A stretch of DNA of 64,000 nucleotides. Origin: Eledone cirrhosa (Eukaryota). The notes beneath the pieces were generated by a model. The model had not been told where the DNA came from and did not search any database. It was given only the letters and a program-made list of their open reading frames with translations. Made by a program: the position numbers and the translations under genes. Below are positions 1,426 to 49,857 of the stretch, in pieces. The DNA lies in the NCBI GenBank assembly GCA_964016885.1, contig OZ024742.1, forward strand, positions 57,226,001 through 57,290,000, read 5' to 3'. The stretch's first letter is position 1; each line of letters begins with the position of its first letter.

Positions 1426-1772
1426 ATCGCTATTTCAGAGCACCAATTCTAATTTTCAATTTCTGCTTGACCTGCCACCGCTCTGTATAATCAGTTACTG
1501 ATTATTACTAGAATTCTATAAGAATCAAACATTCATGATTTTCAGCAAACAGGAGGAGTAGTTAGCTTTGATAAGCATCAAAAAATGCGAAACAGAGCTA
1601 TGTCAGCTTTATCTCCCCTGTTTGCTGAAAATTAAAGTGAGACTGTCACTACTCTAAAACAATAGCATAAGGTCTTCGAAATGCTTTTAATTAAGCATAC
1701 AGTGTATTGCAAAATACAATATATATACATTCATATATATATCGCTATTTCAGAGCACCAATTCTAATTTTA
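1426..1772 (+). mobile_element. F2 element, ~315-nt monomer plus terminal direct repeat
   Basis: TATTTCAGAGCACCAATTCTAATTTT at 1431 and again at 1746. One hammerhead inside. Flanked by (TA)n. Confidence 0.85.
1564..1608 (+). ncRNA. Type I hammerhead ribozyme, U3-A8 core variant (F2)
   Basis: AGCT-TTGATAA-GCAT-caaaaa-ATGC-GAAA-CAGAGCTAT-GTC^-AGCT, enclosed by the long helix TTTTCAGCAAACAGG/CCTGTTTGCTGAAAA (1539-1631). Confidence 0.8.
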
Positions 1773-1773
1773 T

Positions 1774-2066
1774 TTATATATATATATATATATATATATA
1801 TATATATATATATATATATATATATATATATATATATATATATAATTCATGCATTTCTGTTTCTCTCTCTTTCTCACTCACTCTCTTTCACAGTCTCTCT
1901 CTCCCTCTCTCTCTCTCTCTCTCTCTCTCTCTCTCTCTCTCTCTCTTTCTCTCTTGGTACATATACGTGTGTGTGTGTGTGTGTCTGTGTCTGTGTCTGT
2001 GTCTGTGTCTGTGTGTGTGTGTGTGTGTGTGTGTGTGTGTGTGTGTGTGTGTGTGTGTGTGTGTGC
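1774..2066. repeat. Compound microsatellite (TA)n, (TC)n, (TG)n/(TGTGTC)n
   Basis: Direct inspection. Confidence 0.95.
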
Positions 2067-2381
2067 AACCATATAAATATATTCTGCTTCAAAATGCTAA
2101 TAGGTTATTATCCAGTATTTCATCAGATAGATCTTCCTTCAACAAAGTAACCTCTTATTATAGAAACCATTGAAATGTGGCGGATGTAAAGATTATATTA
2201 ATTAAATAAATAATATTAATTTTCAGAAACTTCTAAATAGAATATCTAAAATTGCGTGGTTTAATTCTCCATTCAGTACACATAAATCTAAGCATTTCTT
2301 ATTAGATAAACTCATGTAGAATCATAATAAATGATTTCCATCAGAAATATTCAATTTCACTTCAGCTCTATTAATAATATT

Positions 2382-2606
2382 GGTGGTGGATTGGCAGTAT
2401 CGGTAGAGCATCGGACAACATATGGTTTATGGCATAGAGTTACCCCTTTACGATCTGAGTTCAAATCCTACCGAGGTTAGCTTTGCTTTTCATCCGTACG
2501 GAGTCGATAAAATAAAGTAATGCACAGAGGTCGAATTAATCGACAACTCCCCCCCCCCCCCCCCCAAACATTGTTGGCCTTGTGCCTAAATCAGAAACCA
2601 ATATTA
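2382..2606 (+). mobile_element. tRNA-derived SINE (Octopus-type family)
   Basis: A-box-like TGGCAG, B-box GAGTTCAAATCC, body GAGGTTAGCTTTGCTTTTCATCC...GTCGATAAAATAAAGTA. About 9 copies in the window. Confidence 0.8.
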
Positions 2607-2639
2607 GGAATATTAAACCAGCGTCCATGAAGAATTTGA

Positions 2640-2847
2640 AGGCAGTGGATTGGCAGAATTATTTGAGAGTTGGACAAAATGTTTTACAGCATTTAGTTAA
2701 GGCTCTTTACCTTCTGAGTTCAAATGACACCGAGGTCAACTTTGTCTTCATCCTTCCGAGGTTCATATGTACCAGTCATGTACTGAGATGAATGTAACCG
2801 ACTTTCCCCTCTCCTCATATTGTTGACCTTATTAGAAATCAATATTT
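2640..2847 (+). mobile_element. tRNA-derived SINE, tandem second copy
   Basis: GAGTTCAAATGACACCGAGGTCAACTTTGTCTTCATCC. Confidence 0.75.
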
Positions 2848-3837
2848 AACCATCATCTATATCTAATAATTCCATTCACACAACTGTTTTAATCCTATTT
2901 GCAATAAATAATTCAGTTTTCGAATTCTATGATTAGTTATTTGAATATCATTTTAAAGAATGATTTCATCAGCATCGTTATTCCTTTACAAATCCTGAAA
3001 GATCTTTGGATACAGGTTTATCACAATACGCACGGTCCTTAAAAAATAACAACGTTAGAGACTATTAAATTATTTGGGGTATATTACAACAGACCGACAA
3101 TTCAAGCAAGGTTACTACTAGCGTGGTAGTAAAAAAAAAACTAATACATTGTTTCATTACACTTCCATATATAACTATGCATAAATATTATCAAAAACAT
3201 TTATGTAATTAACATGCATTTTCAATAGTTTATCTTTTTTTTAAATGTTTTATATAACTAAATTATCTAATTTATTTCTTGCTTGAGAATCGGCAACGCG
3301 CCCAATTGATAGTCGCAATTCATATTATTCCAACATAAAATTATATTTATCAACTCTTCCATATGTGTGTGGGGAGCATATATATATGTGTGTGTGTGTA
3401 CATAGTAGAGGTGCAATTGAATTGCGTTCACATGTGGTATGCTAAGATGAGCACTCGATCCTCTTGGGGAGCAGAATATCAATAATAATAATAAATGGAC
3501 GTACGTCTACATGTGAGAACACATCTGAGAAGCTTCCGATTCCAGAATCAGGAACGAATATTAGTCGATCGTTCCTCGAGCTAATCGGCAGTGAAGCATA
3601 TGTAATATGCAATTAAATATGTATATGACGCAATACTGATCCTTTGTTCCCTATTTAATATTATATTTATATATATATGTTTTGTATTCGCTTTGCAAGA
3701 TTCTTGCCGTGAAAGCATGTGTTGTCGTTTAGAAGGGTCATGTTACCAATAAAAAATACACGTAGTAGTTGAGTTTCTTTGGTTTAAATCACGTAACTAA
3801 TTCATCAGTTGCTTTAGCAACCAGATAGTTATTTAAT

Positions 3838-3882
3838 TGTCACAACTTTTTCGTCAAACATTCTGTCACCTTCTCAATGACT
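3838..3882 (-). ncRNA. Degenerate hammerhead remnant (F3)
   Basis: AGTCA-TTGAGAA-g-GTGAC...TTGAC-GAAA...TGACA. Homologous to 52131-52175. The cleavage site is mutated. Confidence 0.4.
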
Positions 3883-47831: not shown

Positions 47832-47987
47832 CCCAGTGTATTACTGGTACTTTATTTTATTGACCCCGTAAGGATGAAAGGCAAAGTTAACCTCGGCGGG
47901 ATTTGAACTCAGTCCGTAAAGGGAAGTAACTCTTTGCTGCAAAGCATGGCGTCCGACCCTCTACCGATACTGCCAATCCACCCCCCT
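47832..47987 (-). mobile_element. tRNA-derived SINE
   Basis: GGATGAAAGGCAAAGTTAACCTCGGCGGGATTTGAACTC. Confidence 0.8.
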
Positions 47988-48244
47988 TGATGATAATAAT
48001 AATGATGAGGATGAGGATGATAAGGAAGATGAGGAGGAGGATGTCGTTATTTAACCCCAGGTCAGCTCTGAGATCAACCAAACCTATAACTAAAAGTCTT
48101 TCAGCAATCACCATTGTCTTTTTAAAAAATACAATAACCATTTGAATCTTACCATTTTAATATAGATCGTTTTCATTTGAGGGAGATTGGCTGCTATTCC
48201 TAGCAGTGATATTACATAAAGGCTTGCTATGATGGCTAGGCGTT

Positions 48245-48575
48245 AGTGATGGTGTCTGTGTTAGTGTTGTTGGTGGTTTTAGTGTTGGTGTTGGTGTTGG
48301 TGCTGGTGCTGGTGTTGGTGTTGGTATTGGTGTTGATGTTGATGTTGGTGCTGGTATTGATGTTGATGTTGTTTGTGTTGGTTTTGGTATTTGTAATGGC
48401 GTTATTGTTGGTGGTGCTAGTGTCGTTGGTGTTGGTGTTGGTGTTGGTGTTGATATTGATGATGATGAAGGTATAAGTGTTGTTGGTGTTGGTGTCGGTG
48501 TTGGTGTTGGAGTTCGTGTTGGTAATGGTGTCGGTGTTGGTGTTGCAGTTGGTGTAGCTGTTCGTAGTGTTTTTG
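48245..48575. repeat. Degenerate (GTTGGT)n simple repeat
   Basis: Direct inspection. Confidence 0.85.
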
Positions 48576-49312
48576 TAACTGTTTCCTATGGCTGACTTTT
48601 AAACCAAGTCCATCTAAACTATGACTATTTTTCACTATTGATTTGTTATATATTTAGGAGTACATTATATCAAGTGCCCTTCTATTTTTCTTTTTTTAAG
48701 ACGGTAGGGAATGATTTGAGGAAGATTTGGTTGTTAATTTCAGCTGGTCGATCGGCTGCGTATGCGTAAATCTTCCTTGGCTGGTTTGTAACACATCAAG
48801 TAATTTGTTAATCAGTAGGAATAAAAATTCTTTGCGTTGGCATCAGGCCATATATTTGAGTGAGGCCCAGTGGGGTGTAGAAAGTTGATTAAATCGATAC
48901 TAGCACATGATGTATTATATATATATATATATATATATATATATATATATATATATATATATATATATATATATATATATATATATATATATATATATAT
49001 ATATATATATATATATATATATATTTATTTATTTATTTATTTATTTATTTATATATATATACATATATATATATATACATATACATATACATATACATAT
49101 ATATATATATATATATATATATATATATATATATATATATATATATATATATATATATATAAATTAGAATTGGTGCTCTGAAATAACTATATATATAGTG
49201 TATTTTGCAATACACTGTATGCTTAATTGAAACCATTTCGAAGACCTTACGCTATTGTTTTAGAGTAGTGACAGACTCACTTACTTTAATTTTCAGCAAA
49301 CAGGGGAGATAA

Positions 49313-49357
49313 AGCTGACGGAGTTCTGTTTCGTACTTTTTGGTACTTATCAAAGCT
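49313..49357 (-). ncRNA. Hammerhead, U3-A8 variant (F2)
   Basis: AGCT-TTGATAA-GTAC-caaaaa-GTAC-GAAA-CAGAACTCC-GTC^-AGCT. Stem II GTAC/GTAC covaries with GCAT/ATGC. Confidence 0.75.
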
Positions 49358-49658
49358 AAGTACTCCACCTGTTTGCTGAAAATCATGAATGATTGATTCT
49401 TATAGAATTCTAGTAATAATCAGGAACTGATTATACAGAGCGGTTGCCGGTCAAGCAGAAATTAAAAATTAGAATTGGTGCTCTGAAATAGCGATATATA
49501 TATGAATGTATATATAGTGTATTTTGTAATACACTGTATGCTTAATTAAAAGGATTTCTGCTTGACCGGCGACCGCTCTGTATAATCAGTTCCTGATTAT
49601 TACTAGAATTCTATAAGAATCAAACATTCATGATTTTCAGCAAACAGGTGGAGTAGTT

Positions 49659-49703
49659 AGCTTTGATAAGTACTAAAAAGTTTGAAACAGAGCTCTGTCA
49701 GCT
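49659..49703 (+). ncRNA. Hammerhead, U3-A8 variant (F2), damaged stem II
   Basis: AGCT-TTGATAA-gtactaaaaagttt-GAAA-CAGAGCTCT-GTC^-AGCT. Confidence 0.68.
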
Positions 49704-49857
49704 TTATCTCCCCTGTTTGCTGAAAATTTAAATTAAGTGAGACTGTCACTACTCTAAAACAATAGCGTAAGGTCTTCGAAATGCTTTTAATTAAGCATAC
49801 AGTGTATTGCAAAATACACTATATATACATTCATATATATATATATATATAAATATT

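Follow-up and report, generated by a model that had tools for sequence, protein, structure and literature searches.

Animal retrozymes of the class lacking long terminal repeats (non-LTR retrozymes) are hammerhead-bearing repeats of 150-450 bp, for which Penelope-like elements (PLEs) have been named as likely mobilisers (PMC7229834). In the corresponding part of a preprint, which argues from co-occurrence and from similarity to the pseudo-LTRs (pLTRs) of PLEs, they are treated as non-autonomous PLE derivatives, with monomer shares ranging from 0 to 1 and two consecutive hammerhead units as the requirement for an active copy (bioRxiv 10.64898/2026.07.22.740005). PLE hammerheads have been described to contain a short palindromic helix III, to act as dimers and to include versions with a U3-A8 core, and a circle-templated insertion of more than unit length has already been proposed for PLEs (PMC4209133). 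The Hydra clade of these elements, with Hydra-1_Obim contained in File S1 of the respective survey, inserts in (TA)n, and the Naiads, which carry an N-terminal nuclease and a DKA motif and are devoid of a canonical hammerhead, produce partial tandems and inverted heads like those described below (PMC8557442). For Penelope, a palindrome has been reported at the junction of the inverted copies (PMC3846280), and Penelope is listed as expanded in coleoids in a section that leaves hammerheads unmentioned (PMC8967140). Here we have analysed a 64-kb stretch of AT-rich, microsatellite-rich animal DNA from Eledone cirrhosa (contig OZ024742.1), in the following termed the window, and characterized four of its repeat families designated F1, F2, F5 and F9. 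We consider it likely that F2, F1 and probably F5, all of them short protein-free units with a hammerhead motif, constitute non-autonomous PLEs that are copied in trans by the reverse transcriptase (RT) and GIY-YIG nuclease of a PLE, most likely of the Hydra clade.

Layout and hammerheads of four repeat families

The segments assigned to the four families are located at the following positions of the window:

961-1192, minus strand: F2 inverted 5'-truncated copy, stopping at the internal TA tract of the unit; hammerhead at 1132-1096
1418-1456, plus strand: F2 partial copy consisting of internal TA and 29-nt 3' tail; 39 nt, 100% identical to 1733-1771
1457-1771, plus strand: F2 full 315-nt unit with U3-A8 hammerhead at 1568-1604, which lies in an extended helix I; (TA)n follows the unit
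49162-49466, minus strand: F2 full 305-nt unit; hammerhead at 49353-49317 with compensatory helix II variant
49467-49552, minus strand: F2 partial copy without hammerhead
49554-49835, plus strand: F2 inverted copy covering the unit from position 3 as far as its internal TA tract, without 3' tail; hammerhead at 49663-49699
61211-61400, minus strand: solo F2 fragment, 5' truncation inside the hammerhead
1-931, no single strand: F1a, chain of inverted F1 arms, ended by the window edge
624-654, plus strand: F1a hammerhead, intact type I
31751-31762, plus strand: left copy of the F1b target duplication, 12 bp
31763-32267, minus strand: F1b full unit, its internal TA run expanded (31837-31929); decayed hammerhead at 32090-32060
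32268-32569, minus strand: F1b partial copy with second same-strand hammerhead at 32515-32485; its start adjoins a 16-bp palindrome, as in F1a
32570-32826, plus strand: F1b inverted copy, beginning 3 nt 5' of the predicted cleavage site
32827-32838, plus strand: right copy of the F1b target duplication, 12 bp
23878-24200, minus strand: F5 full 323-nt unit; intact hammerhead at 24068-24037 with palindromic helix III
24201-24308, minus strand: F5 partial copy without hammerhead
24309-24455, plus strand: F5 inverted copy; hammerhead at 24331-24362 with C3 changed to A
35524-35856, minus strand: F9 main 333-nt copy; decayed hammerhead at 35712-35675; 3' end merging into (AG)n
35857-35964, minus strand: F9 partial copy without hammerhead, preceded by (TA)30
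36046-36361, plus strand: F9 inverted copy; decayed U3-A8 hammerhead at 36168-36196

An earlier sequence-only reading of the window had proposed that these families, although unrelated, share an architecture of one monomer and part of a second followed by an inverted segment, with one hammerhead per monomer, (TA)n flanks and no open reading frame (ORF). This description holds in most respects. Self-comparison and alignments find only TA-rich stretches in common between the families, and the units recur with the claimed periods of 315 and 305 nt in F2 (anchor pairs 1418/1733 and 49158/49463), 323 nt in F5 (23878/24201), 333 nt in F9 (35517/35850) and 425 nt in F1, the latter corresponding to the spacing of the predicted cleavage sites 32060 and 32485. 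Monomer, partial second copy and inverted segment make up each of the five complete insertions (F1b, F2 at 961-1771, F2 at 49162-49835, F5 and F9), and each unit contains one type I motif. The longest ATG-initiated ORFs in the doubled units range from 29 to 64 residues, and a blastx comparison against 27 PLE proteins returned neither a match nor a PLE coding remnant in any unit. Conversely, the inverted segment, which had been viewed as a tail, is a 5' head if read in hammerhead sense, with all five insertions beginning with the 5'-truncated inverted copy, continuing with the partial copy and the full unit and terminating with the 3' end. The (TA)n flanks are confirmed for F2 and F5 but not for F1b, which is enclosed by a 12-bp direct repeat and contains its TA run internally, nor for F9, where (AG)n is found at the 3' end. 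The tandem-plus-inverted architecture is thus largely real. It matches Figure 2 of PMC8557442 and the Adineta Penelope (PMC3846280) and is accompanied in F2 by a tail on one side only, in F1b by the target duplication and in both F1 loci by a palindrome at the junction of the inverted copy, all of which conforms with a PLE-type insertion.

Hammerheads were identified with our own strict type I descriptor, with 30 block-wise dinucleotide shuffles as control, and with patterns specific to each family. The descriptor yields seven matches in the window compared to a shuffle mean of 0.07 (maximum 1, n=30), six with a perfectly palindromic helix III and four located inside the studied families (F1a, F2 twice, F5). 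By family pattern, we find three full and one truncated motif in F1, four full and one truncated in F2 and two each in F5 and F9. The motifs are intact in F1a, F2 and F5 and decayed in F1b and F9, which both fail the strict descriptor. The core contains U3-A8 in F2 and F9, and a U-U base of helix II is shared by F1 and F5 with most of the Hydra hammerheads in File S2 of PMC8557442, as judged by eye. Two same-strand hammerheads, both decayed, are found only in F1b, with the other four complete insertions containing a single one, and the partial copies of F2, F5 and F9 end ahead of the motif. At the gathering threshold, Rfam has no match to the window, and the 150 matches listed by E-value, out of 236, do not include a hammerhead.

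With respect to folding, the circular z-scores amount to -5.7 and -6.0 for F2, -5.8 for F1, -1.7 for F5 and +0.7 for F9, compared to -0.35 for the end of a Hydra pLTR, and F1 without its microsatellite has a linear z-score of -6.2 against +1.5 to -3.3 in 16 background windows. Monomers of F1 and F2 are thus predicted to be strongly self-paired (z about -6), F5 weakly and F9 not. In the predicted fold of F2, the extended helix I exceeds 20 bp and joins both ends of the cleaved monomer.

For F1, the same sequence is read through at two loci that are 87-90% identical, and F1 is likely a fixed unit with two loci. In F1a, arms with 0-3 private changes in 190 nt meet head-to-head at 568/569 and tail-to-tail near 240. 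F1b sits within an ORF-like stretch (31620-33147) whose reading continues across the target duplication; a 108-residue part of this stretch has no Atlas match and a low recognition score.

The F2 unit in contigs and reads

Evidence from beyond the window was obtained for F2 only, by mapping contigs and reads to the 315-nt unit in four runs, comprising contigs X1 (3,783 pieces), the double-digest restriction-site associated DNA (ddRAD) reads X10 and X11, which sample few loci, and contigs X4 of a second organism (60 pieces). The sequence-only reading had proposed a genome-wide comparison of each family. For F2, the head-to-tail seam recurs in many contigs and in the second organism. Small word shares in organisms C-F did not enter the analysis. 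In the window, the seam is identical at two loci, and the copy at 961-1771 shows the layout of that at 49162-49835, apart from an expansion of the TA run and a foreign fragment that interrupt it. The joint from 1771 to 1457 is found in nine X1 contigs and one X4 contig. Among the 12 of 23 joints listed, 11 are head-to-tail, with a seam of exact length in nine, one base longer in one and 25 bases shorter in one. Since the intervening letters in nine of these 11 equal the reference letters that they replace, the seam is inherited at fixed length, and since several joints contain a diverged unit start, it predates the subfamilies.

The 3' ends are equally recurrent. An end at 1768 followed by (AT)n is found in 52 X1 contigs and 294 X11 reads and one at the internal TA at 1742, also followed by (AT)n, in 463 and 393 reads, thus reproducing both ends found in the window. 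Joints between opposite strands account for seven rows in independent contigs and reads. Two of the seven begin at 1457, one perhaps at the window's own locus, which provides a weak hint that the start of the unit might be the genuine 5' end of an RNA. Pile-ups of read ends at 1512/1515, 1633, 1689-1696 and 1458 were considered as RNA ends and rejected, because their positions coincide with GAATTC and TTAA sites (for 1458, within the variant seam); they would be restriction ends of the RAD library, with the enzymes deduced from these sites.

The hammerhead of F2 varies in a paired manner. In the plus-strand first mates of X10, 1576C>T (225/458) is accompanied by 1587G>A (217/449), 1578T>C (282/459) by 1585A>G (295/455) and 1596A>G (117/439) by 1599T>C (101/440), the last pair leaving helix III palindromic. 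X11 is concordant, and the double change in helix II is found in cis at 49353-49317. No changed core position is found among the 40 of 91 variants listed. Copies are 91-97% identical, and contig depth, which is not a copy number, increases from 22,341 at the unit start to 771,899 near 1700 and suggests that the family is very abundant. As judged from these sequences, F2 is a fixed unit with a hammerhead carrying compensatory changes.

A fragment at 1278-1410, which is related to 36702-36822, lies within the internal TA tract of F2 between 19-nt direct repeats, indicating that the tract itself can be a target. Exact F2 and F5 motifs had no match in metagenome contigs, nor had the F2 motif in prokaryote genomes.

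Candidate donors and origin of the insertions

The window contains a nearly intact candidate for the family donating the enzymes:

25553-29087, plus strand: Hydra-clade PLE with 502-bp pLTRs that are 98% identical; hammerheads at 25890 and 28924

Its frameshifted RT/GIY-YIG ORF (26193-28458) encodes RWK, DKT and CxCX5C motifs along with a C-terminal GIY-YIG region, which, by motif assignment against section 11 of PMC8557442, place it in the Hydra clade. Each pLTR carries a hammerhead, the helix II of which holds 91 nt. Among the homologs of the protein, a single one is named, which derives from Argonauta (38% identity), and the PLE proteins of the window are undetected in Pfam at 1e-3. Two fragments (37059-37328 and 63106-63998) show similarity to the same Hydra-type proteins. 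With their C-terminal GIY-YIG, DKT motif and hammerheads, the elements at these two positions and at 26193-28458 are of the Hydra type, and the proposal of a Naiad donor was thus not upheld.

In the mechanism that we envisage, a master copy with more than one unit would be transcribed and the PLE nuclease would nick an AT-rich or (TA)n target. The RT would prime at a preferred site of the unit (in F2 at 1768-1770 or the internal TA at 1742), proceed through a hammerhead site left intact and through the unit seam, and halt after 1.1-1.6 units, upon which the ordinary 5'-end step of PLEs would append an inverted copy in head-to-head orientation. Acting as a dimer ribozyme, the hammerhead is predicted to process multimeric transcripts to monomers by cleavage, and most genomic copies, with one same-strand hammerhead each, would be dead ends. 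Since no 5' or 3' end coincides with a cleavage site among the junctions listed, the nearest being the start of the inverted copy of F1b 3 nt upstream, the template must hold the seam together with an intact cleavage site; a linear monomer cleaved by the hammerhead was rejected as template for the same reason. Either a circle or an uncleaved read-through transcript would fit. As Naiads produce the same layout without a canonical hammerhead (PMC8557442), the layout cannot choose between the two, and the step from layout to circular RNA taken in the sequence-only reading is not justified. The points in favour of circles are the unit size, the folding and selected hammerhead of F1 and F2 and the circles described for mussel retrozymes (PMC7229834). 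We judge the chance that monomers of F1 and F2 would circularise as about even, and that a circle would be the actual template for insertion as somewhat lower.

Several observations weigh against the mobilisation of these units by a PLE of the Hydra clade. Neither self-comparison nor protein comparison detects similarity of any F unit to a PLE or pLTR in the window, and the donor is thus deduced from proximity and style. Each of F5 and F9 has a single locus with an unreplicated seam, and their fold z-scores amount to -1.7 and +0.7. In F9, private differences over 106 columns amount to 11 in the main copy and three in each of the other segments (p about 0.02, calculated by hand), which is unlike the descent from one template molecule, and the family may about as likely be an ordinary PLE end with stacked 3' ends. 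The frequencies of paired changes in F2 are separate counts per position. The joint from 1771 to 1457 is listed for few reads of the two ddRAD runs (2 and 2), compared to 1-4 in neighbouring rows, which is probably explained by a restriction site at the seam, as deduced from read ends at 1458. Finally, the F2 unit may have a longer parent, with 453 loose ends located outside the joints listed.

Since the layout is the same as in any PLE insertion, all four families might be 5'-truncated 3' ends (pLTR remnants) of autonomous PLEs in partial tandem, with periods reflecting chance truncation lengths. PLE pLTRs do carry hammerheads, with opposite-strand pairs reported at 100-700 bp distance (PMC4209133), F5 and F9 are single loci and F9 is AT-rich, unstructured and heterogeneous. 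Such an origin is difficult to reconcile with the F2 seam, whose length is fixed across contigs, subfamilies and two organisms, with the common read-through at both F1 loci and with the lack of a coding remnant in any unit. We thus regard it as improbable for the four families together, while for the individual families its chances would be about equal to the contrary in F9, appreciable but below that in F5, small in F1 and very small in F2. Still less probable is a generic origin of the inverted arms, be it by folding back of the DNA at palindromes or (TA)n or by errors of the assembly, with the common architecture being coincidental. Repeats in which our descriptor finds no hammerhead also contain arms that are 98% (40348-40801) and 100% (50471-50708) identical with (TA)n at their centre, due either to TA runs folding back or to the assembly, and inversion alone is therefore not specific; the tail-to-tail junction of F1a points in the same direction. 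However, the junctions of F1b, F5 and F2 (49552/49554) are head-to-head without TA spacer, with arms differing by 4-11%, a single target duplication encloses F1b, and the opposite-strand joints of F2 are found in independent contigs and reads.

Alternatively, all four families could be classical retrozymes, with each insertion being the rolling-circle cDNA of one circular monomer. The size of the units fits the circles of metazoan retrozymes (170-400 nt), including those of mussel (PMC7229834), the seam is conserved in length, no insertion end is found at a cleavage site among the junctions listed and the extended helix I joins both ends of the F2 monomer. In contrast, the unequal divergence of the F9 segments (11/3/3), the lack of strong folding in F5 and F9 and the same layout in Naiads without hammerheads all argue against this possibility, and the inverted head would in any case require a separate step, so that we consider it unlikely as a general explanation. 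A restricted version, in which F1 and F2 are true circular-RNA retrozymes with thousands of copies, F2 with a non-canonical U3-A8 dimer hammerhead and insertions bearing a complete PLE signature of inverted head, one-sided tail and target duplication, is a tentative proposal that we favour less than its contrary. If it were true, F1 and F2 insertions would be the direct footprint of retrozyme circles that were reverse-transcribed and integrated by the Hydra-clade PLE machinery, a link that has so far been argued only from co-occurrence and pLTR similarity. The view of non-autonomous units that are mobilised by the RT and GIY-YIG nuclease of a PLE, already contained in the sequence-only reading, has good support in F2 and fair support in F1, may apply to F5 and is doubtful for F9.

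Other elements of the window were noted in passing. An extra deleted 3' fragment (25171-25432) lies upstream of the Hydra-clade PLE. A second Hydra-type family (36804-39178, 60864-60926 and 61914-64000) includes a GIY-YIG end and a 3' untranslated region of about 1 kb with a hammerhead located about 55 nt ahead of the 3' end, and its copy at 36804-39178 has 408-bp inverted arms that are 99.3% identical and include coding sequence. A decayed PLE-type RT, probably of another clade (19660-22000, minus strand), ends in a 190-nt fold-back. Three related decayed long interspersed nuclear elements (LINEs) at 5095-10300, 11053-15900 and 41477-46600 are 73-84% alike, each having a GATA/GACA-type tract at or close to one of its ends, the first encoding an apurinic/apyrimidinic (AP) endonuclease and RT. 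A fifth family (24559-25030 and 50818-51311), with copies 96% identical and an inverted head, contains a hammerhead-like motif with A in place of core U4 in three of three copies, a long non-palindromic helix III and a fold z-score of +0.3, which represents a natural variant of the core or, alternatively, a dead ribozyme that has been inherited. Four further hammerhead motifs are located at 18589-18535 (minus), 52435-52391 (minus), 34147-34241 (plus) and 19746-19634 (minus), two of them with a U3-A8 core and a long helix II, and the motif at 52435 is accompanied by a short inverted copy at 52554-52606.

Comparison with retrozymes and Penelope-like elements

The literature search, with subscription papers and Repbase outside its scope, found no description of cephalopod families of the F1, F2, F5 or F9 type. 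Their closest relatives in organization are the metazoan non-LTR retrozymes, which like the F units are protein-free units of a few hundred nucleotides with one type I hammerhead each, a head-to-tail seam and co-occurrence with PLEs, and which share strong self-pairing with F1 and F2. They differ in that the F copies are dispersed 1.1-1.6-mers with inverted heads, which are not described for retrozymes in the relevant parts of PMC7229834 and bioRxiv 10.64898/2026.07.22.740005, and in that F2 and F9 contain a U3-A8 core and the F units are known here from DNA alone. Moreover, a second same-strand hammerhead, as expected of an active retrozyme, is lacking in four of the five complete insertions.

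With PLEs of the Hydra clade, as described in PMC8557442, the F units share (TA)n targeting, a hammerhead of similar layout near the 3' end and a partial tandem with an inverted 5' copy, whereas they lack an ORF and detectable similarity to the Hydra elements of the window. Five exact 15-17-nt motifs from F1, F2, F5, F9 and the window Hydra element are absent from the supplement text of the same study, although exact matching is a weak test. The non-autonomous Chlamys PLEs, such as MRC1, resemble the F units in forming pLTRs and head-to-tail copies but are green algal, usually similar at their 3' end to an autonomous family and mostly devoid of canonical hammerheads (PMC8557442). Naiads, of which cephalopod remnants are known, share the insertion layout and (TA)n targets with the F units (PMC8557442), and are set apart from the PLEs of the window by the C-terminal GIY-YIG, DKT motif and hammerheads of the latter.

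We thus classify the F units as non-autonomous PLE units working like retrozymes and not as proven retrozymes. Both the retrozyme class and its link to PLEs are already in print, and the families described here constitute mechanistic support and not a new system. In the pertinent sections of PMC7229834, PMC4209133 and bioRxiv 10.64898/2026.07.22.740005, the enzyme mobilising animal retrozymes and the circular templates of PLE partial tandems are left as open questions. A PLE integration signature on retrozyme-like units makes the questions of donor and circle testable, for both of which F2 offers a convenient substrate, being young, abundant and 315 nt long, with fixed ends, a compensatory hammerhead and a nearly intact Hydra element nearby.

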